Positions 1 through 11,850 of a stretch of 11,850 nt of DNA are shown here, one piece after another. The notes under the pieces are model-generated. The model made no database searches. It saw nothing but the letters and a program-made list of their open reading frames with translations, and had not been told where the DNA came from. This DNA comes from a virus (Duplodnaviria > Heunggongvirae > Uroviricota > Caudoviricetes). How positions within the stretch are numbered: the first letter of the stretch is position 1; every line of letters starts with the position of its first letter. The DNA is taken from IMG/VR virus record IMGVR_UViG_2623620491_000015, positions 1-11,850 of that record. One strand, 5' to 3'. A program made the translations under genes and the position numbers.

Positions 1-333
1 AAGCTCTAATAGCTCCGCAAATTCGCCTACACGCATCCTGCTGGTTGACTGGCCTATTACCACAAAGCCATTCCCGGAAAGGTTAGGAACAACGTCCTGC
101 TGCTTTAATGCTGCGGTAAACACACACTTCCAGCTTTCTGCATCCAGCCAGCGACCATGCCATTCAACCTGACGAGAGACGTCACCTAAGCAGGCCCATA
201 GCTTCCTGTTTTGGTCTAAGCTGCGGTTGCGTTGCTTAAACTCGACAATGATGTCTAAATCGCATGTCCTAAGGTACTGAATGGCGTTATATCTTATAGA
301 TTCATTGGTAAGGTGATATTTGACACATTTCAT
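1..333 (-). CDS. ninB: NinB (Orf-family recombination mediator), C-terminus runs off the left window edge; N-terminal ~34 aa differ from the lambda-type NinB
   Basis: Minus-strand ATG at 333-331 with GAGG 8 nt upstream. Own translation gives MKCVKYHLTNESIRYNAIQYLRTCDLDIIVEFKQRNRSLDQNRKLWACLGDVSRQVEWHGRWLDAESWKCVFTAALKQQDVVPNLSGNGFVVIGQSTSRMRVGEFAELLEL, open to position 1. From RNRSLDQ onward it matches NinB as I recall it. Not in the ORF track because it is edge-truncated. Confidence 0.75.
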   Translation of the reverse strand, partial: MKCVKYHLTNESIRYNAIQYLRTCDLDIIVEFKQRNRSLDQNRKLWACLGDVSRQVEWHGRWLDAESWKCVFTAALKQQDVVPNLSGNGFVVIGQSTSRMRVGEFAELLEL

Positions 334-826
334 TTTAATACCTCGCAAATTCGCCGAAACATTCATCCGCTTTATTTGCATATACTTTATGAGCTTCCTT
401 TGGGTCATCGTAAAACCCAAGATTAACTTTCCTCTTGTTGATTACGATTTGCGCCCTCCATTTTCTTGATTTCTTATCCCATGAAACGCCTTTATATCCT
501 GATTTGTTATTTGCCTTTTTGTTTACGTTTTGGATGTTTTGAGATCGAGTTGCCAATCTAAGATTTGCTATACGATTGTCATCCCTAACGAGATTTATGT
601 GGTCGATATCACTTTTTGGTAGACTGCCATTCATATAGAGCCACGCCAGCCTGTGTGCCTTATAAAGTTTTCCATCGACTTTTATTACCCAGTAGCCTTC
701 GCTACTCTTATGCCCTGCGATATCCCCAGCATTCATTCTCTGGCATTTCTTTACTTTCCATGTGAATTTCCCTGTTAACTCATCGTAGAGAAGGACTTCT
801 TTTAGTCTCTGCTGAGTTATTTGATT
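232..826 (-). mobile_element. Homing-endonuclease cassette inserted in the 5' part of ninB (HNH-AP2 coding segment plus a replacement ninB 5' end)
   Basis: NinB-like sequence sits on both sides: residues 1-32 at 922..827 and from residue ~35 at 231 downward. The intervening segment is visibly AT-rich compared with flanking DNA and encodes the endonuclease domains plus a new ninB start with its own SD. Boundaries are approximate. Confidence 0.5.
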
Positions 827-922
827 GATTGGTTTGGTTGGGTCTGGAAGGATTTGCTGTACTGCGTGAATAGCGTTCTGCTGATGTGCTGGAGATCGAA
901 TTTCAAAGGTTAGTTTTTTCAT
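335..922 (-). CDS. HNH (HNH_3) + AP2-domain homing endonuclease, fused in frame to the first 32 residues of lambda-type NinB
   Basis: Track ORF 335..940 starts at TTG; the ATG at 922 (MKKLTFEI...) has a purine-rich SD (GGGAGAGGGAAG) just upstream. Motif DIDHINLVRDDNRIANLRLATRSQN is HNH_3-like; SGYKGVSWDKKSRKWRAQIVINKRKVNLGFYDDPKEAHKVYANKA is AP2-like. The first 32 aa read like the NinB N-terminus. Confidence 0.8.
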   Translation of the reverse strand: MKKLTFEIRSPAHQQNAIHAVQQILPDPTKPINQITQQRLKEVLLYDELTGKFTWKVKKCQRMNAGDIAGHKSSEGYWVIKVDGKLYKAHRLAWLYMNGSLPKSDIDHINLVRDDNRIANLRLATRSQNIQNVNKKANNKSGYKGVSWDKKSRKWRAQIVINKRKVNLGFYDDPKEAHKVYANKADECFGEFARY

Positions 923-936
923 GACTTCCCTCTCCC

Positions 937-970
937 CCAAATAAAAAGGCCTGCGATTACCAGCAGGCCT
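937..970 (-). terminator. tR2-like intrinsic terminator between helicase and ninB region
   Basis: Perfect 8-bp inverted repeat aggcctgc / gcaggcct (947-954, 963-970) with an 8-nt loop. On the minus strand it is followed by TTTTATTTGG. Confidence 0.6.
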
Positions 971-995
971 GTTATTAGCTCAGTGATGTAGATGG

Positions 996-2372
996 TCATA
1001 CGTCAGCCCCTTGTGCATATCGTCTGCCACGCGCAGCAGGTGCATTTGATGCTGTGCAAATCTGTCTGGCTTCATCCTGGTCACATGCAACAAAGTGTCC
1101 GTTACAGAACCGCTGGTAAACCGTACCAAGCGAGCCAAAACGGTTTTTCGTCACGATGATTTCAGCAAATGGCGCGGCGCTACTGTTCTCGTCATATACC
1201 GCTTCCCGATAGAGCATGATGATTGAGTCTGCGTCCTGTTCAATGCTTCCTGAATCACGCAAATCTGCGTTTGTCGGGCGTTTGTTTGGTCGCTTCTCAA
1301 CATCGCGCGAAAGCTGACTTAGGGAGATAACAGGCGTTTTCAGGTCTTTCGCCATCGCCTTCAGGCTTCCGGAGATGTGAGCAATTGCTAGGTCGTTGCG
1401 GTCTGCTTTCGGCTTCTCAATCAGGCCAAGATAATCCGCCATGATTAGAGACAGGTTTGGATTTTCCTGTTTATGCCGTTCTGCGATTGAGCGTATTTCT
1501 TCGACCGATAACCGCGAGGCATCGACTACCCATACATCCAAATCTGCAAGCTGACTCATGCCGTTAGCAACACGCGCCCAGCCTTCGTCATCCATCGATG
1601 CAGGATTTCGCAGTACGCTAACCGACATCCTCCCGGCGTTGGCAATGCTTCGCTCTGCAATCTGCAATGCGCTCATTTCCATTGAGAAAATCAATACCCC
1701 GCGCCGGACGTCAGAACCAGGAATAACGCGGCTTGCAACGCCTTCGGCAATCTTCAGCGCCAGTTCGGTTTTCCCCATACCAGGACGAGCAGCGATTATC
1801 ACCAGGTCTTCTGCGTTCATCCCTCCGGTGATGGCATCAAGTTCTTCGATTCCGGTCTTCAGGGTATCGGACTCTTCTCCGTTCCTCAGACGCCTGTCAA
1901 GCGTGTCAGTGTAGTCAGTGATGATTTCCCCTAACCGTACAGGTTTAACCTCGTCACGGGGCTTTCTGATAGCTGAGAGACGTTTTACAAGTTCATCCAT
2001 CGCCTGACTCGATGCGTCGATGGTTCCGCTCTGAATTGGTTCACGCATTTCATCCATGATTTCCAGCACCAGACGGCGGTGATAGTTATCCGCGACCATT
2101 CCGGCATATCCCTTCAGGTTTGCGGCACTCGGGCAGTTTTTGCTGGTCATCAGGATTGACGTGAAATGCTCCTCTCCGCATTCCTCAGCAACCATCAGCG
2201 CGTCGATTAGGTTTCTGTTTCGCGCCTGCTTGCGGATAACCTCGAAGGCTTTCCGGTAGAGCGGAATTGAAAACGCTTCCGGCTCCAGCGTTGCCAGAAC
2301 GTCACTGGCGGTTGGAGTTAATCCACCAATCAGCAAGCCACCGATAACGCTCGCTTCGATATCCTGTCTCAT
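996..2372 (-). CDS. Replicative DNA helicase, DnaB family (P22 gp12-like)
   Basis: 458-aa ORF with Walker A ([15 protein letters not shown]) and DnaB-type RecA-fold motifs ([29 protein letters not shown]). ATG at 2372 overlaps the upstream gene's stop (ATGA). Confidence 0.9.
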
Positions 2373-3316
2373 GCAATCCCCCTGTCTGCAAACTTCCCTT
2401 CCCGTACTCCCGTTAACGAATCTTCCCTCAGCAGGTAATCAAAATCTGCCGTCCAGCCCGTGTCGTTGTCTCCGAAGTAAAACGGCTTGGCCTGATGCAC
2501 AAACGCCCTGACATACGCTCTGAAACCGTCCACGTTTGGCGTTTTCAGTTGCGGAATGATTTTCTTCAGGCGACGTTTGCGTTTCTCGTTGACCGCAACA
2601 GCGTGTGGCAGTCTGTCACCGACTTCGGTGTTGTAGGCATTCAGGAAGGATTCATAGTCGATTCGTTCTGCCTTGCGACGTTCAGGTTTAACCTGCCCAT
2701 CGCCTCCCCCATTGGGGGGTAGGGGGGTATTATTTATATTCTTGTTAATACCTTCTTGTTCATGATGTGCGGTTGTTTGTGCGGCTTCATGTGCGCTTTC
2801 ATGTGCGGCATGTACGCTGAAAGCCGCGCCATTACTGGCTTCGTCATGTGCGGCGTCATGTGCGGTTGTTTGTGCGGCTTCATGTGCGGGTGAATTGTCC
2901 ATTTTTTGAGCATATTCATGGTAATTTGTGATGGTGATCACACGACCTTTTTGCTTCTCTCCATCAATGGTGATCATCCCCTCTTTCACAAAAACCTGAA
3001 GCATCCGCTCAACCTGATCACGGCTTGCCGGCTTGCCATGCCTGTCGCATAACTGAAGACCTAAATCAGCTGCTGTCACAACCAGTTGACCGGGTTGCAG
3101 ATGCCATTCATGACCTTTGAAATTCGCTTTGTATGGCTTTCTGGCGGCATTCAGGAGAAGGTTTTCCCACAGGGTGCGAAGATAAACATCTTTCGCCCAT
3201 GACTGTTTCAGAATGCTCCGGTACAACGGAATGTAACCAGTTTTCTGGTTCTCCATCCTGTTGCTCCTGCGCTCGTGTGCGGCGCTGAAATCGTAGATTT
3301 TTGCTGTGTTGCTCAT
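2369..3316 (-). CDS. Replication initiator protein (lambda O / P22 gp18-like) with a repetitive Ala/His-rich linker
   Basis: 315-aa ORF. The N-terminus [10 protein letters not shown] resembles lambda O (MTNTAKILNF). It sits immediately upstream of, and translationally coupled to, the helicase gene. The internal repeat region coincides with the iteron-like DNA repeats. Confidence 0.8.
2766..2894. repeat. Eight copies of a 12-bp direct repeat TGTGCGGnnnnn in two clusters of four; candidate ori iterons
   Basis: Units at 2766, 2778, 2790, 2802 and 2847, 2859, 2871, 2883 (tgtgcggttgtt, tgtgcggcttca, tgtgcgctttca, ...). A G-rich then AT-rich stretch follows at 2710-2760 (ggggggtaggggggtattatttatattcttgttaata). 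This is the same arrangement as ori-lambda inside O. Confidence 0.55.
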
Positions 3317-3318
3317 AA

Positions 3319-3591
3319 CTACCTGCCTTGACGAAAGACCTTAAGAACATCGTTAAACTGACTTACGGATATGTCTTCTTTGAGCAGCTTTTCCAGAAAT
3401 GCGTTTGGAATGAACGTATATCCATCCTCTTTTGGTAGAGACGGGAGCAACGCCCTCGCCTCAGCCTTCAGAAGCTCAGTTCTGGCAACTTTCACAAAAG
3501 AGATTTGAGTTCTTTCATCAATGGAACGAAGGAAGCGCAAACGCTTAGCTTCTTTGTGTGTATCAGGTGGATTAAAGCCTTTGTTTCGCAT
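3319..3591 (-). CDS. Hypothetical protein (90 aa) between cII and the O-like gene
   Basis: Internal ATG of track ORF 3319..3756 at 3591 with GAGG SD. The upstream part of the track ORF overlaps cII in another frame and is discarded. The stop abuts the O-like start. Confidence 0.55.
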   Translation of the reverse strand: MRNKGFNPPDTHKEAKRLRFLRSIDERTQISFVKVARTELLKAEARALLPSLPKEDGYTFIPNAFLEKLLKEDISVSQFNDVLKVFRQGR

Positions 3592-3602
3592 ATAATTACC
3601 TC

Positions 3603-3669
3603 GTTGGATGTTGTTAAAATTCCATTTGTATTTGATCAGAACGCTCGGTTGCCGCCGGGCGTTTTTTAT
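3603..3669 (+). ncRNA. oop: oop-like antisense RNA overlapping the 3' end of cII
   Basis: Plus-strand TATAAT at 3591-3596. The 3' end CAGAACGCTCGGTTGCCGCCGGGCGTTTTTTATT matches the lambda oop terminator as I recall it. It is antisense to the last ~55 nt of cII. The 5' end is an estimate. Confidence 0.6.
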
Positions 3670-3910
3670 TGGTGAGTCCATCAAGCGCATACTTAAAAGC
3701 CCTGCTAATCGGACTGATATCTGATGCCATTCCGAAAGCACACAAGACCGAGGCAATAAATCTCCAGTCCGTTCTGCTTATCTTCGATTCATGACAGCCA
3801 ATCATCTTTGCCAGACCGCGCTGGGTAAGTGTTGACAGGTTGATGAGTAAATCGGTTTCTGCGCGATCAACATCGCGCTGTGATAGTTTGCTGTAACTTG
3901 TTTGTTCCAT
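3614..3910 (-). CDS. cII: Transcriptional activator CII
   Basis: 98 aa. The C-terminus LTNKKRPAATERSDQIQMEF and the central ...ESKISR... match lambda CII. Position between cro and the replication genes fits. Confidence 0.9.
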   Translation of the reverse strand: MEQTSYSKLSQRDVDRAETDLLINLSTLTQRGLAKMIGCHESKISRTDWRFIASVLCAFGMASDISPISRAFKYALDGLTNKKRPAATERSDQIQMEF

Positions 3911-3925
3911 TTCTTACTATTTCCA
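3888..3925 (+). promoter_or_regulatory. PRE-like promoter with CII-box repeats (TTGC-N6-TTGT) overlapping the cII start
   Basis: ttgc tgtaac ttgt at 3888-3901, immediately beside the cII ATG (complement of 3908-3910). Same geometry as lambda PRE, oriented toward cro and cI. Confidence 0.5.
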
Positions 3926-3974
3926 TAGGTAAATAATCACTAATACTCATCTTTCGATGAGCGATTAATTAGTT

Positions 3975-4010
3975 ACCGCGTTGTCGGCGGTGCAGATTGA
4001 TAAAGAGCGG
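3975..4010 (-). promoter_or_regulatory. nutR (boxA + P22-type boxB)
   Basis: Minus strand reads CCGCTCTTTA (boxA, 4001-4010), then ACCGCCGACAACGCGGT (boxB hairpin, 3975-3991), between cro and cII. Confidence 0.7.
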
Positions 4011-4019
4011 ATCCGCTTA

Positions 4020-4235
4020 TTAAGCGGCTTTGTGTTCCGGCGGGAACACGTCATCAAGACTGACTTTTGCGCCTAACTTGTTTAGGCACGCAACAAGAGC
4101 ACGGCATGTTTTAAGGTCTGGGAAGCGACGACCAGATTCCCAATGTCCGATAGCTCCCTGTGTGCATCCAACCGCCTTAGCAAGTGTTGTTTGAGAGATA
4201 TTCAGTGACTCTCGATATTTTCGTAGGTTGCTCAT
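4020..4235 (-). CDS. cro: Cro-like HTH repressor (71 aa)
   Basis: Internal ATG at 4235 with GGAGGG SD directly upstream. HTH region SQTTLAKAVGCTQGAIGHWESGRR. Divergent from cI across the operator region. The 5' extension of the track ORF is discarded. Confidence 0.8.
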   Translation of the reverse strand: MSNLRKYRESLNISQTTLAKAVGCTQGAIGHWESGRRFPDLKTCRALVACLNKLGAKVSLDDVFPPEHKAA

Positions 4236-4346
4236 ATGCCCTCCATAGTAACCATGAAACAATAATACGATATGTACTTTTGGAATGCAAACAAAAAATA
4301 CATCTTGTGCATGGATGGTTTTAGTACATAGCGTAATAATAAGGAT
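4236..4346. promoter_or_regulatory. OR region: divergent PR/PRM with repeated ~17-bp operator motif
   Basis: Operator-like sites at 4262-4280 and 4321-4339 are inverted copies (AGTACATAnCGTAnTA) and are partly palindromic. PR candidate on the minus strand: -35 TTGCAT (complement of 4285-4290), 17 bp, -10 TATTAT (complement of 4262-4267). cI may be nearly leaderless. Confidence 0.6.
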
Positions 4347-5006
4347 ATGAAAATGAAATGGTATGAACTGGCTAGATCCAGAATGAAAGAGCTCGGCATA
4401 ACTCAAGAGAAGTTAGCTGAAGAGCTTGGTATGACGCAGGGTGGAATTGGTCACTGGTTGCGCGGATCTCGTCATCCATCTCTTGACGAGATTGGTGTGG
4501 TGTTTAAATACCTTGGTATTGATAACGTCTCATTCAACCACGACGGTACATTTTCACCTGCTGGCGAATACTCATCTGCCCCCGTTAAAAAACAATATGA
4601 GTACCCTGTTTTTTCTCATGTTCAGGCCGGGATGTTCTCGCCTGAGCTTAGAACCTTTACCAAAGGTGATGCGGAGAGATGGGTCAGCACAACCAAAAAA
4701 GCCAGTGATTGTGCGTTTTGGCTTGAAGTTGAAGGTAATTCCATGACCGCACCAACAGGATCCAAGCCAAGCTTTCCTGACGGAATGTTAATTCTCGTTG
4801 ACCCTGAGCAGGCTGTTGAGCCAGGAGATTTCTGCATAGCCAGACTTGGCGGTGACGAGTTTACCTTCAAGAAACTGATCAGGGATAGCGGTCAGGTGTT
4901 CCTACAACCACTAAACCCGCAATATCCAATGATCCCATGCAATGATAGCTGTTCCGTAGTAGGGAAAGTTATCGCCAGCCAGTGGCCTGAAGAGACATTT
5001 AGTTAA
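4347..5006 (+). CDS. cI: CI repressor (LexA-like S24 autocleavage domain); lambda-type C-terminal domain with a non-lambda N-terminal HTH domain
   Basis: The C-terminal ~125 aa ([22 protein letters not shown]...[11 protein letters not shown]) are near-identical to lambda CI as I recall it. N-terminal HTH is [25 protein letters not shown]. Alternative start ATG at 4353 with AAGGA SD. Confidence 0.9.
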
Positions 5007-5038
5007 CAGCCTCACCACTCTAAAACACACAACAATAA

Positions 5039-5066
5039 CCCGACCTTAGCGTCGGGTTTTCTTTTT
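5039..5066 (+). terminator. Intrinsic terminator downstream of cI
   Basis: cccgac-cttagc-gtcggg hairpin followed by TTTTCTTTTT. Confidence 0.7.
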
Positions 5067-5085
5067 CCAAAATATAAATCAATAA

Positions 5086-5160
5086 AATACAAAGTGTTAT
5101 AAAAAACCAACCACATTTAGAACATTTTGTATTGACTCAATAAAGTACACATCGTACTAT
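5086..5160 (+). promoter_or_regulatory. OL/PL: leftward early promoter with operator sites
   Basis: -35 TTGACT (5132-5137), 17 bp, -10 TACTAT (5155-5160). Site AGTACACATCGTACTAT (5144-5160) matches the OR motif. Inverted pair aatacaaagtgtt (5086-5098) / aacattttgtatt (5121-5133) lies upstream. Confidence 0.6.
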
Positions 5161-5206
5161 TTAGCCATCAGCAGGAAGCTGGAAGCCAAACGGAACAGAT
5201 TGGCAG

Positions 5207-5240
5207 GCTCTTTAACTTCGATGGGGCGCTGACAAAGCGC
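5207..5240 (+). promoter_or_regulatory. nutL (boxA GCTCTTTAAC + P22-type boxB GCGCTGACAAAGCGC)
   Basis: boxA-like at 5207-5216 and a perfect 5-bp stem / 5-nt loop hairpin at 5226-5240, in the PL leader upstream of N. Confidence 0.75.
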
Positions 5241-5359
5241 AAACAGATACCAAACGAGATGGGTTTGGCGGTGATGTGAATTGCAGCTGCAACGACAGCA
5301 ACCAGAAGATCAGCACCTGGCGCATCACCACCAAAGCCATTTCACATGAGGAAAATATC

Positions 5360-5668
5360 ATGACGGTAATCGTGTACGGAAAATCAACATTTGCAGGAAA
5401 TGCCAAAACTCGCCGTCATGAGCGGCGCAGAAAGCTGGCTATCGAGCGTGATGCTATATGCAACATCATCGATTCGATCTTCGGCACAGACAGTGAGGAA
5501 CCTGTTCAGGAAGCCCCGAGAAAGCGTTTAAGCATTTCTGAAAAAGCAATATCACTCGGCATCATTAGCAAATCAAATACAGATGCGAATAGCGGAAGCG
5601 TTTGTTTGCCTGAAGTTGCACTGTATGCTGCTGGTTACAGAAGGCAAAAACTAATTACAGCGAGGTAA
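5360..5668 (+). CDS. N: Antitermination protein N (P22 gp24-type arginine-rich motif)
   Basis: ATG at 5360 with GAGGA SD. N-terminus MTVIVYGKSTFAGNAKTRRHERRRKLAIER matches the boxB-binding peptide of P22 N. The upstream part of the track ORF is discarded. Confidence 0.85.
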   Translation: MTVIVYGKSTFAGNAKTRRHERRRKLAIERDAICNIIDSIFGTDSEEPVQEAPRKRLSISEKAISLGIISKSNTDANSGSVCLPEVALYAAGYRRQKLITAR

Positions 5669-5670
5669 AA

Positions 5671-5949
5671 ATGAAGCCTAGCATAACAATCAAGCCAGCG
5701 AGAGATAATAGCAGGAACCGCCGCAGAGAGGCCAGGAAGGCAGAAAGAGCAGAGAAGGAAAACAAGAGCCGGGAGGAGAGAAAGGCAGAGATTTTGGAAA
5801 AAGGAGGATTGGCTGCCGTGAGGGGTGAAAAAGCAGCTGAATTAGCAGTAGCTCACGAAAAGACAGAGATTGACAATAATTCTGGTGGAGATGCAATGTT
5901 TAAAGTTGTCAATCACGCCCATCAACGAAACCCCAAAAAGAAATGGTAA
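5671..5949 (+). CDS. Hypothetical highly charged (Arg/Lys/Glu-rich) 92-aa protein
   Basis: ATG 3 nt after the N stop with GAGG SD. The DNA is strongly purine-rich on the coding strand. Ends just before a terminator. Confidence 0.55.
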   Translation: MKPSITIKPARDNSRNRRREARKAERAEKENKSREERKAEILEKGGLAAVRGEKAAELAVAHEKTEIDNNSGGDAMFKVVNHAHQRNPKKKW

Positions 5950-5952
5950 TCA

Positions 5953-5977
5953 ACCCGTCCAAGACGGGTTTTTTATT
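5953..5977 (+). terminator. Intrinsic terminator (tL1-like)
   Basis: cccgtc-caa-gacggg hairpin followed by TTTTTTATT. Confidence 0.7.
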
Positions 5978-6006
5978 GCAAGCAAACCACTTATTTGAGA
6001 TGAGAT

Positions 6007-6372
6007 ATGGAAGAACAAGCAAACAAGATTCTCGTAGAACTACTGCAAAAAGCCAGCAATGGAATAGACGCGGCTGTTTCATTTAGCCAGGCACAGATTC
6101 CTGATGTCATCCATCAGCTTTTGATGTGGCACGCCGTATCATCAGCTGGAATTCAGGCTATCTGTGTATTGGTGATTATAGCGTGTGTTTATCTGATGAT
6201 TTTTGCATGGAATAAAGGAGATGATGCGGATGTTGTTCTTTTATCGCTACTTGTAACATCAGGAATAGCGATTACTTCTATTGTTGTTTTCTTCAATTAT
6301 TTCGACTGGCTGAAAATCTGGCTTGCTCCAAAACTTTACCTTATCGAATATGCAGCATCATTGGTTAAGTAA
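6007..6372 (+). CDS. Hypothetical small membrane protein (two predicted TM helices)
   Basis: 121 aa. Hydrophobic segments IQAICVLVIIACVYLMIFAW and VVLLSLLVTSGIAITSIVVFF. Sits where lambdoid phages carry sieB/ral-type accessory genes. Weak SD. Confidence 0.55.
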   Translation: MEEQANKILVELLQKASNGIDAAVSFSQAQIPDVIHQLLMWHAVSSAGIQAICVLVIIACVYLMIFAWNKGDDADVVLLSLLVTSGIAITSIVVFFNYFDWLKIWLAPKLYLIEYAASLVK

Positions 6373-6376
6373 TTTC

Positions 6377-6402
6377 AGGCCGCATAGTCGGCCTTCATTT
6401 TT
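6377..6402 (+). terminator. Intrinsic terminator
   Basis: aggccg-catagt-cggcct hairpin followed by TCATTTTT. Confidence 0.6.
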
Positions 6403-6404
6403 GG

Positions 6405-6547
6405 CATAAACAACAGAATAAACACTGCACTGTGTATTCATTCCAACGAGTGAATACACGGAGCAATGTCGCTCGTAACTAAACAGGAGCCGACTTGTTC
6501 TGATTATTGGAAATCTTCTTTGCCCTCCAGTGTGAGGGCATTTTTTT
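6405..6547 (+). ncRNA. Candidate structured non-coding RNA or leader bounded by two terminators
   Basis: No ORF. 9-bp perfect inverted repeat gtgtattca / tgaatacac (6432-6440, 6451-6459), additional pairing acgag / ctcgt, and a terminal intrinsic terminator gccctc-cagtgt-gagggc + TTTTTTT (6522-6547). Confidence 0.35.
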
Positions 6548-6559
6548 GACGGAGGAAAT

Positions 6560-6871
6560 ATGAAATTACGTGTCTGGCATATCCCGCAAGTACCTATGAA
6601 GCCGTTCATTGTAGAAGTGGCAAGTGTTGAAGAGGGTGTTCGCCTGATGGACGCACTGGCTGATTATGACGCCTTTCAGTATGACAACAACATCAAGCCT
6701 GATTACTGCAATGCTAACGGCCTTGAGATGTGGGATGAGAGCCTTACCGATGAAGATTTATCAGAGATGGGGCTTACTGATCGCTGGGTGGATTGGTACA
6801 GCGAATGCCAATGTTACGACGACCCACGTAAATATCTCGAAAGCCTGAAAGAAGAAACATCAGCCGCCTAA
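6560..6871 (+). CDS. Hypothetical acidic 103-aa protein
   Basis: ATG with GGAGG SD. Strongly acidic composition (many D/E, Trp-rich). Sits in the ea10/ral-equivalent position. Confidence 0.65.
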   Translation: MKLRVWHIPQVPMKPFIVEVASVEEGVRLMDALADYDAFQYDNNIKPDYCNANGLEMWDESLTDEDLSEMGLTDRWVDWYSECQCYDDPRKYLESLKEETSAA

Positions 6872-6946
6872 GCGCGGCTTTACCGCATACCAATAACGCT
6901 TCACTCGAGGCGTTTTCGTTATGCAATCAAATATAAGGAGTTACCC

Positions 6947-7081
6947 ATGATGCACTTTCAGCTCGCGGGTAGCGGCGTCATGTCCGCTTTCTACCCGCAC
7001 GAATCTGAATTATCACGCCGAGTTAAACAATTAATCAGAGCAGCAAAGAAACAACTGGAGGCGTTATGCGCAATGAAATAG
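6947..7081 (+). CDS. cIII: CIII-like FtsH-inhibitor peptide (44 aa)
   Basis: Not in the track (<60 aa). AAGGAG SD 7 nt upstream. MMHFQLAGSGVMSAFYPHESELSRRVKQLIRAAKKQLEAL resembles the lambda CIII core (AIAGWPVAGCPSESLLERITRKLRDGWKRL). Confidence 0.7.
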   Translation: MMHFQLAGSGVMSAFYPHESELSRRVKQLIRAAKKQLEALCAMK

Positions 7082-7218
7082 CCATTAATCACCAGATGCT
7101 TCGTGCGGCACAAAACAAAGCAGTAATAGCCAGATTTATTGGTGATTCAAAAATGTGGCTTGAAGCAAATAAAGCGATGAAATCAGCTATCAACCTTCCG
7201 TGGTATCGCAGGAAATGA
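7066..7218 (+). CDS. kil: Kil-like peptide (50 aa), putative host cell-division inhibitor
   Basis: Not in the track. GGAGG SD; the start overlaps the cIII-like 3' end. Motif ARFIGDSKMW resembles lambda Kil as I recall it. Synteny cIII then kil. Confidence 0.5.
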   Translation: MRNEIAINHQMLRAAQNKAVIARFIGDSKMWLEANKAMKSAINLPWYRRK

Positions 7219-7293
7219 GTTTTACAGATAACTGGTCAGACGAAGAATTCATTCGTCAGATGAAAGAATTAATCGGTAACGAAGGAGATATTC

Positions 7294-7464
7294 ATGTCAC
7301 TTGCAACCACAGTGAAGGAGAGCAAGTTACAGAGACGCATGTACACGCAGCAGGCGTTAATGTATCGCCAGAAGGGAGATCGTGAAGGTGTTCGCGTATT
7401 TTTAAATGCGGCAAAGACTGAAGTATTAAATCAGCGTTATTTCCTTGGGCCGTGTCCATTCTGA
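7294..7464 (+). CDS. Hypothetical 56-aa protein (Arf-like position upstream of the annealing protein)
   Basis: AAGGAG SD 6 nt upstream of the ATG. Plausible helical sequence MSLATTVKESKLQRRMYTQQALMYRQKGDREGVRVFLNAAKTEVLNQRYFLGPCPF. A competing ORF 7215..7385 in another frame is coupled to kil by ATGA. Confidence 0.5.
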   Translation: MSLATTVKESKLQRRMYTQQALMYRQKGDREGVRVFLNAAKTEVLNQRYFLGPCPF

Positions 7465-7472
7465 GGTGAATT

Positions 7473-8180
7473 ATGGATTTGAATAAATTCGATGAGCCAT
7501 TCAGCCCTGAAGATATCGAATGGCGAATACAGCAAAGCGGTAAAACACGCGATGGCAAAGTGTGGGCTATGGTGCTGGCTTATGTAACGAACCGGGCAAT
7601 CATGAAACGCCTGGACGATGTTTGCGGCAAAGCAGGATGGCGCAATGAATACCGCGATATTCCCAACAACGGCGGCGTTGAATGCGGCATATCAATAAAG
7701 ATTGATTCCGAATGGGTAACCAAATGGGATGCTGCTGAAAACACGCAGGTAGAAGCCGTCAAAGGTGGTCGTTCCGGTGCAATGAAGCGCGCTGCCGTTC
7801 AGTGGGGAATCGGTCGGTATCTGTATAACCTTGAGGAAGGTTTCGCACAAACATCTCTCGATAAAAAGCAGGGATGGCACAGGGCAAAACTCAAGGATGG
7901 AACAGGATTTTACTGGCTCCCTCCATCGCTGCCGGGATGGGCAATACCAGCATCAGATAACAAACCATCACCAGAAAATACCAACCAGAAATCTCCATCG
8001 GTTGACTGCGAACAAATCCTGAAAGACTTCAGCGATTATGCGTCAACAGAAACTGACAAGAAAAAACTCATCGAGCGTTATCAGCGTGACTGGCAATTAA
8101 TGGCTGGCAATGAGGAGGCGCAGGCTAAATGCGTTCAGGTAATGAACATCAGAGTTAACGAACTAAAACAGGCGGCATAA
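7473..8180 (+). CDS. Single-strand annealing protein, Rad52/Sak family
   Basis: 235 aa with Rad52-like motifs (RLDDVCGKAGW ... GAMKRAAVQWGIGRYLY). Directly precedes ssb. Confidence 0.7.
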   Translation: MDLNKFDEPFSPEDIEWRIQQSGKTRDGKVWAMVLAYVTNRAIMKRLDDVCGKAGWRNEYRDIPNNGGVECGISIKIDSEWVTKWDAAENTQVEAVKGGRSGAMKRAAVQWGIGRYLYNLEEGFAQTSLDKKQGWHRAKLKDGTGFYWLPPSLPGWAIPASDNKPSPENTNQKSPSVDCEQILKDFSDYASTETDKKKLIERYQRDWQLMAGNEEAQAKCVQVMNIRVNELKQAA

Positions 8181-8687
8181 ATGGCAAGCAGAGGCGTAAA
8201 TAAGGTGATTATCCTTGGTCGGGTAGGACAAGACCCGGAAGTTCGATACTCACCATCAGGTACAGCGTTCGCTAACCTGACAATAGCCACGTCAGAACAA
8301 TGGCGAGATAAAAATACTGGCGAGCAAAAGGAATTGACTGAATGGCATCGTGTTGCTGTATCCGGGAAACTGGCTGAGGTCGTGGGGCAGTATGTGAAAA
8401 AAGGTGATCAGATTTATTTCGAGGGAATGCTGAGAACCAGAAAGTGGAAAGACCAGTCAGGGCAAGACCGTTACACAACCGAGGTTCATGTCGGAATTAA
8501 TGGCGTGATGCAAATGCTTGGCGGCATTGGCGACAGCAAACAACAAGCAGCCAGCAGGCAATCACAGAAGCCACAGCAGCAATCATCACCAGCACAACAC
8601 AACGAACCTCCGATGGATTTTGACGACGATATACCCTTTGCACCAGTAACTCTCCCCTTCCCTCGTCACGCTATTCACGCAATTTAA
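8181..8687 (+). CDS. ssb: Single-stranded DNA-binding protein with a 15-aa extension after the DDDIPF motif
   Basis: OB-fold N-terminus ([23 protein letters not shown]...), Q/S-rich linker, then MDFDDDIPF followed by [15 protein letters not shown] before the stop. Confidence 0.85.
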
Positions 8688-8700
8688 TCAGGAGAAAATC

Positions 8701-8997
8701 ATGCCAGCGCCTCAGTATGGTGCGGATGACCCGCGCCGCTGTTCCGGCAATTCCGTATCGGAGGTGCTGGATAAATTCAGGAAAAACTACGACCGGATAA
8801 TGTCGCTACCGCAGGAAACGAAAGAGGAAAAGGAATTTCGCCATTGTATATGGCTTGCAGAGAAAGAAGAACGCGAGCGAATTTACCAGACATCAATCCG
8901 ACCATTCCGCAAAGCCACATATACCCACTTCCCTGAATATATCGACCCTCGCCTGCGTAATTACCGCTCACGCTATGGCGCTATCAGTAATGACTGA
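8701..8997 (+). CDS. Hypothetical protein (98 aa)
   Basis: ATG with AGGAG SD. Confidence 0.6.
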
Positions 8998-9007
8998 GGA
9001 ATTTACT

Positions 9008-9172
9008 ATGAGAGGACTTGCATACAATCCCGGCATTCTTCCGGCAGAAATGATTATTCGCCAACGCGTAAAGCCAATGCCATCGAGAGAGGAATTGCTT
9101 AAGAGAAATTCTTTTCAATCAGTAAATCAAAACAAATATCTGAATGCGATGTTGCGGAGTGGGAAGAAATGA
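9008..9172 (+). CDS. Hypothetical protein (54 aa)
   Basis: ATG at 9008 with GAGGA SD. The upstream part of track ORF 8855..9172 overlaps the previous gene and is discarded. Confidence 0.5.
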
Positions 9173-9645
9173 AACAAATGTCACTAATTGAGATGGATGG
9201 ATTCCTGAAAGGTAAATGCATCCCCCGAGATTTAAAGGTTAACGAAACAAACGCTGAATATCTGGTGCGTAAGTTCGGTGAACTTGAATCAAAACTAGAA
9301 ACGGCGTTGCGGGAGTGTCGTTCTGCTGGAATCACGATTGATAACCTTGAGGCCAAGTGCGCGGCGCTGGCTGCTGAAAAAGAGACATTTGCTGTCGAGT
9401 GTGCGGCCGCAAAAATCGCCATTGCATACCTGAAATCAGGACGACAGGATTTTTCGCTTAACACCCCAGCCACTGACGCTTTCCTGGCTGAAGTCCGGGC
9501 TAAGGCGTTTGATGACCTTTGCGCGGCGTTCGTTAAGCACGCGTCGGTGTCCGGGCTGGACGATGGCGACTGCGTTACGGTGAAAGAGGCGACTGACGCC
9601 CTGCTGCATTGTGCGGAACAGCTTCACGAGGGAGTGCATTCATGA
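9169..9645 (+). CDS. Hypothetical protein (158 aa)
   Basis: ATGA overlap with the upstream gene. Predicted helical, Ala-rich. Confidence 0.6.
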
Positions 9646-9875
9646 GCAACCTACTACCATGTCCATTCTGTGGCGGCGCAGCGCACGTTGCCAGCGAAGC
9701 AGATCACCCTGAATATGGCTCTGGCGGTCGATTCTATTTCGTTCGATGCGGTACGTGTCGCGCTCAATCTGGTAGCAAATATGCAGCGCCTGGAAATGAC
9801 TGCGCGATTTTTTATTCAGAGGTTAGAGCAGAGTGGAATCAGCGAGCAAAGGAGGCAACCAGTGAGCCAGATTGA
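9642..9875 (+). CDS. lar: Lar-family restriction alleviation protein (zinc-ribbon)
   Basis: ATGA overlap with the upstream stop. [12 protein letters not shown] ... RCGTCR ... EWNQRA matches the Lar/RalR pattern (CPFCG ... C..C ... WN.R). Confidence 0.65.
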   Translation: MSNLLPCPFCGGAAHVASEADHPEYGSGGRFYFVRCGTCRAQSGSKYAAPGNDCAIFYSEVRAEWNQRAKEATSEPD

Positions 9876-10413
9876 TTATCAGGCACTGCGTGCTAAGGCA
9901 GAAAAAGCAACGTGTGGTGTGTGGTCGCTCGAATATGGAGAGAGCCGATTTGATTGTGATGATGCGCTAATTCATCGTGACGTTGTTGGATATCTTCCCA
10001 TTTGCAGAATTGAAGGAGCGCATCCAGAAAGCGGTTTCGATGAAGATTTCCAAATGGAACAGCAGGCCAATGCTGAATTCATCGCCGCAGCCAATCCGGC
10101 TACTGTGCTGGCATTACTGGATGAACGGGAAAGGAACCAGCAATACATCAAATCCCGCGACCAGGAGAACGAGGAGATTGCGTTAACGGTAGGGAAGTTG
10201 CGCGTTGAGCTTGAGGCAGAAAAACAGCGGGCAAAGGATCTGTTTATGGAAAATGCTCGGCTTAAGTCAGGTATAGCCGGTCTGATACACCTCGGTATTC
10301 GATATGCAGATGTTGAGGTCATGAGAATTGCTGGAGATGCCCAGCTTTCTACCCCATGCACTGACAGCATCATAAACAGCATTGCAACAGGCATTCGCAT
10401 CAAAGGAGAGTGA
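9862..10413 (+). CDS. Ead/Ea22-like protein
   Basis: GTG start with AAGGAGG SD 7 nt upstream. N-terminus SQIDYQALRAKAEKATCGVW is typical of the Ea22-like family. The part of the track ORF upstream of 9862 overlaps lar in another frame and is discarded. Confidence 0.65.
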   Translation: MSQIDYQALRAKAEKATCGVWSLEYGESRFDCDDALIHRDVVGYLPICRIEGAHPESGFDEDFQMEQQANAEFIAAANPATVLALLDERERNQQYIKSRDQENEEIALTVGKLRVELEAEKQRAKDLFMENARLKSGIAGLIHLGIRYADVEVMRIAGDAQLSTPCTDSIINSIATGIRIKGE

Positions 10414-10615
10414 TATGAGCAGGAATATGGGTTTGTAAAAGATAACGCTTGTGAAAATGCTGAATTTCGCGTCGTCTTCACAGCGATGCCAGAGTCTGTA
10501 GTGTCAGATGATGACCGTACTCAAACATCGGGTTGAGTATTATCTTACTGTTTCTTTACATAAACATTGCTGATACCGTTTAGCTGAAACGACATACATT
10601 TCAAGGAGTTTATAA

Positions 10616-10897
10616 ATGCGTATCAATGAGTTAGAGTCTGAGCAAAAAGATTGGGCGTTATCAATGTTGTGCAGATCCGGTGTCTTGTCTCCATGCAGAC
10701 ATCACGAAGGTGTTTATGTAGATGAAGGTATAGATATAGAGTCGGCATACAAATATTCAATGAAGGTTTATAAGTCTAATGAAGACAAATCCCCATTCTG
10801 CAATGTGCGAGAAATGACTGATACCGTGCAAAATTATTATCACGAGTACGGTGGAAACGATACTTGCCCTCTCTGTGCAAAACATATAGATGATTAA
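10616..10897 (+). CDS. Hypothetical Cys-rich 93-aa protein in an AT-rich island (moron-like)
   Basis: AAGGAG SD. Visibly AT-rich compared with flanking DNA. Cysteines include a C-terminal CPLC pair. Followed by an intrinsic terminator. Confidence 0.6.
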   Translation: MRINELESEQKDWALSMLCRSGVLSPCRHHEGVYVDEGIDIESAYKYSMKVYKSNEDKSPFCNVREMTDTVQNYYHEYGGNDTCPLCAKHIDD

Positions 10898-10917
10898 ACC
10901 AAATATTACATAACAAT

Positions 10918-10944
10918 CCTCGCACTCGCGGGGATTTCTTTTAT
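10918..10944 (+). terminator. Intrinsic terminator
   Basis: cctcgc-actc-gcgggg hairpin followed by ATTTCTTTTAT. Confidence 0.6.
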
Positions 10945-10985
10945 CTGAACTCGCTACGGCGGGTTTTGTTTTATGGAGATGATAA

Positions 10986-11153
10986 ATGCACTTCCGAGTC
11001 ACAGGTGAATGGAATGGAGAGCCATTCAACAGGGTTATCGAAGCAGAGAACATCAACGACTGCTATGACCACTGGATGCTATGGGCGCAGATAGCACATG
11101 CAGACGTAACCAATATTCGAATTGAAGAACTGAAAGAACACCAAGCCGCCTGA
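10986..11153 (+). CDS. Hypothetical protein (55 aa)
   Basis: Not in the track. ATG with GGAG upstream. The stop lies inside the terminator hairpin. Confidence 0.45.
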   Translation: MHFRVTGEWNGEPFNRVIEAENINDCYDHWMLWAQIAHADVTNIRIEELKEHQAA

Positions 11154-11168
11154 TGGCGGTTTTTTATT
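11146..11168 (+). terminator. Intrinsic terminator
   Basis: ccgcc-tgat-ggcgg hairpin followed by TTTTTTATT. Confidence 0.6.
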
Positions 11169-11179
11169 GGAGACAAGAA

Positions 11180-11524
11180 ATGTCAGATTTGGCTATGAAG
11201 GTTTTGAAATGGCAATCAACTGGCGATGTTGGCATCAGTAGCGCAACTCTTGCCTCAATCGCATGTGGCCTGAAAAAGAATATCTATGGTCATCACTTCG
11301 GCGCTCCCCATGACGCAGCAGACTTTCGGCGATGCGTTGCACTTGTTGAGCAGATTCCAGAAATCAGAGATTCATTCGACAAGGTTGCAAAGCGCGTTCC
11401 GGTATTCAAAGGCATCCTCAACGAATGGGATTCCCTCGTCGCTCTGTTGAAGTCTGAAATGAAGACGTACGGGAACAAAGCACCAGAGACTTACAGAAGA
11501 ATCAGCGAGCTACGCAAGGACTAA
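11180..11524 (+). CDS. Hypothetical protein (114 aa)
   Basis: ATG at 11180 with GGAGA SD. The 9-codon upstream extension in the track overlaps the terminator and is discarded. Confidence 0.6.
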   Translation: MSDLAMKVLKWQSTGDVGISSATLASIACGLKKNIYGHHFGAPHDAADFRRCVALVEQIPEIRDSFDKVAKRVPVFKGILNEWDSLVALLKSEMKTYGNKAPETYRRISELRKD

Positions 11525-11584
11525 CCACAGCCTCACACTCGATGAGGCCTGTTCATTGCTCAATGATATCCAGACCTACCATCG

Positions 11585-11607
11585 CCGCATCAATGCGGTT
11601 TTTTATT
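11585..11607 (+). terminator. Intrinsic terminator
   Basis: ccgcat-ca-atgcgg dyad followed by TTTTTTATT. Confidence 0.55.
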
Positions 11608-11649
11608 GCCTGATTTACAGGTTCGATTCCCTATTCGGAGATAGCACTC

Positions 11650-11850
11650 ATGCAACACGAACTACAGCCTGATTCACTGGTTGATTTGAAATTCATCATG
11701 GCCGATACTGGCTTCGGTAAGACCTTCATCTATGACCGGATTAAGTCCGGCGACCTGCCTAAAGCCAAAGTTATCCACGGGCGAGCAAGATGGTTATATC
11801 GTGACCATTGTGAATTCAAAAATAAGCTCTTAAGCCGCGCCAATGGGTAA
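11650..11850 (+). CDS. xis: Excisionase / AlpA-family DNA-binding protein
   Basis: 66 aa. FIYDRIKSGDLPKAKVIHGRARW is an AlpA/Xis-type winged-helix motif. The stop codon is the last three bases of the window; an integrase is expected just beyond. Confidence 0.7.
   Translation: MQHELQPDSLVDLKFIMADTGFGKTFIYDRIKSGDLPKAKVIHGRARWLYRDHCEFKNKLLSRANG

Follow-up and report, generated by a model that had tools for sequence, protein, structure and literature searches.

An HNH-AP2 endonuclease cassette with a substitute 5' end in ninB of a lambdoid prophage, a candidate for homing into a coding sequence

Homing endonuclease genes usually spare their hosts by an intergenic position or by residing in self-splicing introns or inteins, and their usual target is a conserved, functionally constrained sequence. 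In the mitochondria of the fungi Allomyces and Glomus, mobile open reading frames (mORFs) form "gene hybrids" with atp6, atp9, cox2, and nad3, where the endonuclease open reading frame (ORF) brings a foreign C-terminus that displaces the native one (PMC3630166). Here, we describe an 11,850-nucleotide (nt) stretch of a lambdoid prophage (IMG/VR record IMGVR_UViG_2623620491_000015, positions 1 to 11,850; called the window below), in which an HNH-AP2 endonuclease gene lies in the 5' end of a lambda-type ninB gene and is followed by a spare, recoded ninB 5' end, which would represent a third route of sparing the host gene, in a phage. Judging from the sequence and from structure predictions, the most probable reading is that of a free-standing HNH-AP2 homing-endonuclease cassette whose spread would rely on break repair, with cleavage being predicted. 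The original prediction of a homing-endonuclease cassette that captured the ninB start and supplied a substitute 5' end is supported by an empty site, by the catalytic residues, by the point at which the endonuclease family starts, and by the linkage of the substitute end to the endonuclease gene.

The HNH-AP2 combination is recognized as a homing-endonuclease family (PMC10448857), and phage endonuclease genes have been described inside coding sequences. The free-standing endonuclease gene mobE lies within the coding sequence of nrdA in the Aeromonas phage Aeh1 (PMC3045599), and in Felix O1-like phages, nrdD is divided by an endonuclease gene (PMC4837284), with the host function reportedly being retained. 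In gene 31 of phage epsilon34, the N-terminus of eaE is fused in frame to an HNH homing endonuclease (PMC2629481). The DUF968 Orf-HNH proteins from phages of Gram-positive bacteria consist of a complete Orf DNA-binding domain and, C-terminally, a zinc-finger HNH motif and are proposed to be a single enzyme (PMC4118853). Our full-text literature searches returned no paper reporting a homing endonuclease within ninB, nor any account of a substitute N-terminus from phages; in the literature searched, the spare-end trick is known from fungal mitochondria and not from phages.

Organization of the interrupted ninB gene

The native 5' remnant of ninB (positions 827 to 934, on the minus strand like all parts of the locus given below) comprises the ribosome binding site (934 to 925), with the lambda ninB Shine-Dalgarno (SD) sequence preceding the ATG (922 to 920), and codons 1 to 32 (922 to 827), which encode residues identical to residues 1 to 32 of lambda NinB (PDB ID 1PC6). 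This remnant now forms the N-terminus of the endonuclease ORF, as the 32 codons run in frame into a 163-residue HNH_3 plus AP2 endonuclease, giving a total product of 195 residues. The HNH_3 and AP2 core (fusion residues 33 to 195), identified with Pfam and phrog_99, occupies positions 335 to 826 together with its TAA stop codon (337 to 335). Both the NinB-type opening at the ATG at 922 and its continuation into the endonuclease had been predicted correctly, whereas the predicted length of 201 residues counts from an upstream TTG and had to be corrected.

A complete NinB ORF is re-created directly past the endonuclease stop. Within positions 331 to 344, as read from the sequence, a GAGG SD sequence (344 to 341), the endonuclease TAA, one base, and a new ATG (333 to 331) follow one another, with the ATG lying 7 bases past the GAGG and 1 base past the stop. 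This arrangement, which we interpret as a cassette-borne translational-coupling junction, is identical in 30 of the 30 copies that we found and has an equivalent (GAGGTTTTGAATG) in the diverged lineage L010 described below. The new ORF opens with the substitute ninB 5' end (N'; 232 to 333), 34 codons of the sequence MKCVKYHLTNESIRYNAIQYLRTCDLDIIVEFKQ located within the Pfam NinB match, and continues into the lambda-type ninB body (1 to 231), which starts at codon 39 (CGCAACCGCAGC, encoding RNRS) and runs off the window. Its first 34 residues diverge from lambda, and from RNRSLDQNRKLW to the window end the protein is lambda-identical. The window stops inside this ORF after 111 codons, and full-length 142-residue NinB ORFs are found at related loci. 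The second start at 333 with its own SD sequence, opening a NinB ORF with about 34 divergent residues, was thus also foreseen by the original prediction. The search for an internal promoter driving this second NinB gave a single weak consensus match within the endonuclease gene, below the shuffled expectation.

The mobile cassette spans positions 232 to 826, with its junctions being defined, as had been proposed beforehand, by alignment with intact ninB alleles, namely, lambda and the empty-site prophage L043. The cassette of 595 nt replaces 18 nt of lambda ninB (codons 33 to 38, GTAGTAACCATTCAGGAA), and the locus is in this respect not the pure insertion that had been described. At the left junction (marked by a slash), lambda reads ...CCAACCAAACCAATC/GTAGTA... 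and the window ...CCAATC/AATCAAATAACT..., and at the right junction, lambda reads ...ATTCAGGAA/CGCAACCGCAGC... and the window ...TTTAAGCAA/CGCAACCGCAGC... in the alignment with lambda. The content of guanine and cytosine (GC) is 33 to 44% across about 232 to 826, in line with the AT-richness noted at first sight, versus 50 to 55% in the flanks. The cassette consists of an endonuclease gene without its own start or ribosome binding site, an SD sequence, and a recoded 34-codon ninB 5' end.

In the RefSeq E. coli loci L001 to L003 and L005 to L009, the Prokaryotic Genome Annotation Pipeline (PGAP) describes the fusion as a 39-codon "HNH endonuclease" pseudogene fragment and a separate HNH coding sequence, a split annotation that conceals the in-frame fusion architecture. 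For this coding sequence, PGAP uses a non-canonical in-frame start (ATC or ATA, codon 32 or 35), and M63 in the case of a nonsense allele; the ATC and ATA starts are considered model-fitting artefacts, with no SD sequence ahead of either. Before M63, neither a canonical start codon nor an SD sequence remains in the endonuclease portion, and translation must therefore come from the ninB ATG. The fusion frame is open in 29 of 30 independent copies and in a 66%-identical lineage, on which grounds we regard a chance ORF as ruled out.

The endonuclease portion matches the HNH_3 domain (Pfam ID PF13392; fusion residues 87 to 129, positions 664 to 536) with an E-value of 9e-17 and 60.8 bits against a cut-off of 24.8, the AP2 domain (residues 141 to 181, positions 502 to 380) with an E-value of 1e-6 and 29.4 bits, which is below the cut-off of 33.3, and phrog_99 at 1e-74. 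Residues 33 to 195 share about 50% identity with thousands of free-standing phage HNH endonucleases from Felix O1-like, T1-like, and other phages. In an alignment of 56 family sequences, the autonomous relatives begin 1 to 3 residues ahead of a conserved (I/L)TQxRLKELL motif, and the fusion point coincides with this start, the NinB remnant ending where the free-standing relatives begin. The HNH catalytic residues, whose presence the original prediction had left to a careful alignment, are in place: D107 and H108 (604 to 599), N120 (565 to 563), and N129 (538 to 536) align to the catalytic and metal-binding residues D74, H75, N87, and N96 of I-HmuI (PDB ID 1U3E). Across the same 56 sequences, D107, H108, and N120 are invariant and N129 is at least 90% conserved.

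The AlphaFold model of the fusion has a predicted local distance difference test score (pLDDT) of 89.5 overall, with values above 90 for residues 41 to 195 and of 59 to 79 for the NinB remnant. The top PDB match of the first domain is I-HmuI (1U3E), with a probability of 1.00 and a root mean square deviation (rmsd) of 3.6 over 96 columns, where the E-value of only 2e-3 and the template modeling (TM) score of 0.34 to 0.38 result from a single domain being aligned. The C-terminal domain superposes on plant AP2/ERF domains, with an rmsd of 1.3 Å over 53 columns for 7ET5 and of 2.0 Å over 56 columns for 1GCC.

The downstream ORF matches the NinB family (Pfam ID PF05772) at 1e-38 with 132 bits against a cut-off of 23.8, covering residues 5 to 111, and phrog_72 at 2e-35. 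The substitute N-terminus aligns over its whole length to NinB residues 1 to 38, being homologous and highly diverged, and keeps the nearly invariant family residues N16, A17, and I18. It has 14 of 34 identities to the nearest, non-lambda NinB clades versus 8 to 9 of 34 to lambda, and its loop is 4 residues shorter, a shortening that is also seen in other natural clades. On the DNA level, the substitute 5' end is 54% identical to lambda codons 1 to 38, and the longest exact word that it has in common with the upstream remnant is 6 nt. The right junction immediately precedes the most conserved NinB motif (RNRSLDQNRKLW), containing Q45, K48, and W50, the lambda Orf residues chosen for mutagenesis by Curtis et al. 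(PMC4118853). The chimeric NinB retains this motif plus R37, S38, Q41, and N42, and the ninB body includes the conserved DQNRKLW channel motif.

Empty site, distribution, and diversity of the cassette

The E. coli CUWW11 prophage L043 carries an uninterrupted ninB within the same helicase and ninB flanks, with 0 mismatches to the window across 1773 to 827 and 1 mismatch in 231 to 1, and the two loci represent a clean insertion polymorphism. Of 5426 complete E. coli genomes, 8 contain the cassette, each in a single copy that is located at ninB and is at least 99% identical. The flank query matches 2090 E. coli genomes, where the other matches, among the matches listed, are uninterrupted ninB genes; uninterrupted ninB is the norm in E. 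coli genomes, and the protein is not a widespread native NinB variant lacking an intact allele, a case that would have refuted the original prediction. Additional copies are present on 10 IMG/VR contigs, 5 metagenome contigs, and 6 assembly contigs, and the phage GenBank collection contains no copy. All 30 copies sit at the same ninB junctions, and the endonuclease gene was never seen elsewhere. Likewise, the substitute 5' end is linked to the endonuclease gene in 30 of 30 copies and never occurs alone. A 90%-identity protein cluster has 592 member sequences, and NinB proteins with the substitute N-terminus also exist in Salmonella.

The neighbours of the cassette vary, with the replication modules being of the DnaB type, the toprim/primase-helicase type, the DnaC-like ATPase type, or the lambda P type, and the nin genes differ too. 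Compared in pairs, 25 copies have a diversity of 0.5% for the endonuclease gene and of 0.6% for the substitute ninB 5' end, which rises to 11% in the 96-nt native remnant and 10 to 13% in the ninB body, with the outer flanks being unrelated. The native remnant follows the local ninB allele among the copies. The complete set of 30 copies falls into at least 7 haplotypes of the left flank and at least 8 of the right flank, with polymorphism setting in 24 nt outside the left junction and 13 nt outside the right one.

A diverged lineage is represented by the protein P0004, which is 66% identical to the window endonuclease and encoded on contig L010 (ENA ERZ28582696 scaffold_1107, positions 5001 to 5614), a contig that also encodes homologues of lambda O and P. 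Here, the N-terminus that precedes the endonuclease in the same frame is again of the NinB type but has another sequence (MRKQTFEIRTPLVQQNAIRTIQQLYPDLGKE), and the endonuclease is followed by GAGGTTTTGA and an ATG, with the new ORF starting MKTIRYHLIDE..., clearly related to MKCVKYHLTNE... of the window; the contig ends 12 codons into this downstream ORF. Between the two endonucleases, the proportion of nonsynonymous differences (pN) is 0.21 and that of synonymous differences (pS) is 0.75, the synonymous sites being saturated. A saturated pS with a far lower pN indicates that the endonuclease has been under purifying selection throughout and that the fused architecture is persistent. No further copies of this lineage were found in species-representative genomes or metagenome contigs.

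Proposed homing and alternative explanations

The window covers the immunity, replication, and nin region of a lambdoid prophage, with the early-right operon on the minus strand. The genes for CII (3614 to 3910), an O-like replication protein (2369 to 3316), and a DnaB-type helicase (996 to 2372) are followed on this strand by the ninB and cassette region. The plus strand encodes a cI-type repressor, the N antiterminator (5276 to 5668), and, in the early-left operon (7473 to 8687), a Rad52-type single-strand annealing protein together with the phage's own single-stranded DNA-binding protein (SSB). A tR2-type intrinsic terminator, an 8-pair stem-loop followed by a T-run (947 to 970, minus strand), has the same sequence as that upstream of lambda ninB. 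As it is located directly ahead of the ninB start, expression of all that follows would require N-mediated antitermination and thus be confined to lytic development. This position places the cassette within the N-dependent (nin) part of the early-right operon.

For the homing reading, N-antiterminated transcription would pass tR2 in lytic growth, ribosomes would begin at the ninB ATG to produce the NinB(1-32)::endonuclease fusion, and re-initiation at the coupled ATG would produce the chimeric NinB, leaving the phage its recombination mediator. The endonuclease would cut or nick the cassette-free ninB of co-resident lambdoid phages near codons 33 to 42; the insertion disrupts the sequence spanning codons 33 to 38. 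Repair would then copy the cassette from the donor, with ninB codons 1 to 32 serving as the left homology arm and the gene from codon 39 on as the right one, so that the in-frame fusion would be regenerated at each transfer. The divergence of the spare 5' end would remove the target site, resulting in immunity to self-cleavage, and would also block recombination between the ninB 5' copies, which would delete the endonuclease gene. This design would account at once for the expression of the endonuclease, the survival of the host gene, and the escape from re-cutting and recombinational loss. The Rad52-type protein, SSB, and NinB make up a complete phage recombination set that could assist repair and would favour it with such short arms, as Rad52-like phage recombinases reportedly have relaxed homology requirements (PMC3945230). 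Indirect support for a unidirectional gene conversion with co-conversion of the flanks comes from the low diversity of the cassette (0.5% versus 10 to 13% in the adjoining ninB) and the many flank haplotypes.

Several observations weigh against homing. The cassette is rare, and one copy (L005) has a TGC-to-TGA nonsense mutation in the fusion ORF. E. coli APEC20/16 (NZ_CP127297.1) has two ninB-query matches, only one of them with the cassette, and a cassette-free copy apparently co-resides there with the cassette-bearing prophage. The fusion point in L010 is 2 to 3 codons shorter than that of the window, a shift for which either an indel or a separate fusion event may be responsible. For the chimeric NinB (111 window residues, a truncated monomer of an intertwined dimer), the AlphaFold model is of moderate confidence (pLDDT of 75); a Foldseek search matches it to 1PC6 with an E-value of 2e-12, but the superposition is poor, with a TM score of 0.40 and an rmsd of 11.5. 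The donor of the substitute N-terminus was not found in any collection searched: tblastn against phage records gave just lambda-type NinB with 46 to 48% identity, a word-indexed protein search returned the cassette's own fragments only, a HMMER scan of the first 40 residues against 1.84 billion representative proteins returned only itself, and every match of degenerate DNA patterns in viral and metagenome contigs has the endonuclease upstream. The target site was inferred from the junctions only. Some HNH_3 enzymes, e.g., I-HmuI, are nickases, and a double-strand break by this endonuclease is not assured.

Some of these observations speak for the main alternative to homing, in which the structure arose as proposed and the endonuclease now drives nothing, the cassette being a fossil or passenger spread by ordinary homologous recombination between the flanking ninB sequences. 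The rarity (8 of 5426 genomes), the nonsense allele, and the genome with a second, cassette-free ninB-query match all favour such a passenger, and the window phage's own Rad52-type recombinase and SSB permit recombination with relaxed homology (PMC3945230). We nevertheless regard it as unlikely, since the ORF is intact in 29 of 30 copies and its catalytic residues are invariant, purifying selection extends across saturated divergence, and the low cassette diversity on many haplotypes, with breakpoints within 13 to 24 nt of the junctions, is hard to obtain without site-targeted breaks. An improbable alternative is that the nuclease is kept mainly as a weapon damaging rival lambdoid phages that bear an ordinary ninB, in the manner of marker exclusion, with the spread of the cassette being a by-product. 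Free-standing endonucleases of T-even phages do mediate marker exclusion, the ninB target is common to a large fraction of E. coli prophages, and expression would be limited to lytic development downstream of tR2; the present data fit homing equally, however, the two readings are not mutually exclusive, and a large benefit is difficult to reconcile with so rare a cassette.

The remaining explanations concern the nature of the fusion itself. Orf-domain/HNH fusions exist in phages of Gram-positive bacteria (PMC4118853), and the protein could accordingly be a bona fide Orf-HNH enzyme like DUF968 or an ancestral two-domain protein, with lambda-type ninB being its deletion derivative. It holds just 32 NinB residues and not an Orf domain, however, and these are predicted with a lower pLDDT than the rest; the HNH part comes from a free-standing family that starts at the junction, its composition is foreign, and it occurs sporadically within near-identical ninB alleles. 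With the empty-site allele and the family alignment, a native protein is effectively refuted and has a very small probability. Smaller still is the probability that ninB contains a self-splicing intron or an intein that encodes the endonuclease and that splicing restores the host function. An in-frame endonuclease ORF is typical of many intron ORFs and inteins, but this one is followed by a stop, an SD sequence, a new ATG, and a complete substitute N-terminus, and we found no match to Rfam intron families at E-values up to 1 in positions 1 to 1200 of the window and no Hint/intein domain in the Pfam scan.

Related cassettes and comparison with known systems

A mirror-image 3' cassette is found at ninB of the Stx2-converting phage 86 (NC_008464; L027, 2411 to 3422) and phage APC_JM3.2 (L028, 2501 to 3512). 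The gene is lambda-type through codon 42 and then continues as a diverged AT-rich NinB body (41% GC, Pfam NinB 2.5e-40), which is overlapped by the gene of a 200-residue NUMOD4 plus HNH_3 endonuclease ending in the native NinB C-terminus (KARWGDRAA and stop). Of the 5426 complete E. coli genomes, 77 contain this 3' cassette. Two loci, L026 (IMGVR_UViG_2751185961_000005, reverse strand, about 5800 to 7000) and L037, carry both the 5' and the 3' cassette, and their NinB ORF is cassette-borne save for a lambda-type island of 12 to 14 nt, AACGCAACCGCAGC, where the two cassettes abut. This suggests that two unrelated endonucleases may act at or next to, and converge on, the same conserved motif-coding site.

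The same design appears at other genes. At ninF (L005, 5681 to 6396, and also L014, 6073 to 6727), an AT-rich replacement C-terminus (ERCIYECLNMVEHNEKYKQHRRIKK) is followed first by an overlapping HNH_3 gene and then by the native ninF 3' remnant, which is annotated as "NinF missing N-terminus". On a Logan contig (SRR33312801_431319; L044, 365 to 1328), an HNH-AP2 endonuclease that is 47% identical to that of the window in the family alignment carries a 26-residue SSB N-terminus in frame. Its gene is succeeded by an ssb gene that is complete (Pfam SSB 8e-35) and whose N-terminus is a variant one, which we read as an independent second example of the window's architecture. The N-terminal extensions of P0048, P0074, and P0103 were rejected as parallels, since the extension is not similar to the downstream gene, leaving ssb as the only true parallel. 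With lambdoid occurrences at either end of ninB and also at ninF and an ssb gene, we tentatively propose, at somewhat less than even odds, a general "spare-end" strategy, by which phage HNH endonuclease genes would colonize coding sequences without introns or inteins, carrying a recoded replacement end and borrowing the translation signals of the remnant. If true, the sharp mosaic joints within genes that have long been known from lambdoid phage genomes would have a concrete source in spare-end cassettes. The ninB locus provides one defined case in which a mosaic boundary within a gene is linked to a nuclease, and thereby bears on how lambdoid mosaicism arises. It is also a tractable case, as its target, lambda ninB (orf), is non-essential, genetic assays exist, and lambda is the best-developed phage genetic system.

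Other endonuclease genes and chimeras are found around ninB. The protein P0178 (L040 to L042) is another chimeric NinB, with the first approximately 52 residues diverged, the remainder identical to lambda, and no fused endonuclease. L041 has an autonomous HNH-AP2 gene with 34% GC (1628 to 2239) upstream of tR2, and in L040 and L042, ninB is separated from dam by the gene of a 175-residue HNH_3 protein. For endonuclease genes, the nin region seems to be a hotspot. The lambda-like phages LR597651.1 (Lambda_ev058) and PV340574.1 (PhiR63_2) have a gene annotated as a transposase or "mobile element protein" in the stretch that matches the ninB query, which is an unrelated kind of insertion close to this locus. 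The record MW057783.1, named "Campylobacter phage CJLB-4" (48,361 bp), is 98.5% identical to lambda from ren to ninB at lambda-like coordinates, and is probably lambda contamination or a mislabelled record.

Compared with the free-standing HNH endonucleases of phages (Felix O1-like, T1-like, and T4 Mob-type), the window endonuclease belongs to the same phrog_99 family and has the same domain order and catalytic residues, at about 50% identity. Those genes are autonomous, have their own starts, and are intergenic or gene-splitting, whereas the gene in ninB has lost its start and would be expressed as a fusion with the N-terminus of its target. As in the mobE/nrdA and nrdD cases, the ninB cassette interrupts a phage coding sequence and involves neither an intron nor an intein. 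There, however, the host gene is split into two reassembling polypeptides, whereas a complete replacement end is supplied at ninB and nothing is split.

Gene 31 of epsilon34 resembles the ninB fusion in joining the N-terminus of a lambdoid or P22-like gene in frame to an HNH endonuclease, but, comparing by description, it concerns another gene and another HNH family, and a substitute N-terminus and population evidence are not described in that paper. The DUF968 proteins also combine NinB/Orf-related sequence and an HNH motif in one polypeptide, in contrast to the ninB fusion, where just 32 NinB residues are present as a by-product of insertion. The Orf-HNH fusion mentioned by Curtis et al. (PMC4118853) was considered as the same thing and rejected, as it refers to this different DUF968 family.

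The closest concept to the ninB cassette is the fungal mitochondrial mobile-ORF "gene hybrid". The mORFs share three parts with it, all of them present at ninB: an endonuclease ORF inside a protein gene, a diverged copy of the gene's terminus that restores the frame, and a displaced native remnant. The fungal mORFs replace the C-terminus, encode LAGLIDADG or GIY-YIG enzymes, and reside in organelles, whereas the ninB cassette replaces the N-terminus, encodes an HNH-AP2 enzyme, and resides in a temperate phage. Unlike in the fungal mORFs, the native remnant at ninB supplies the start codon of the endonuclease. The 3' cassettes at ninB and ninF, in turn, are direct phage counterparts of the fungal mORF arrangement.

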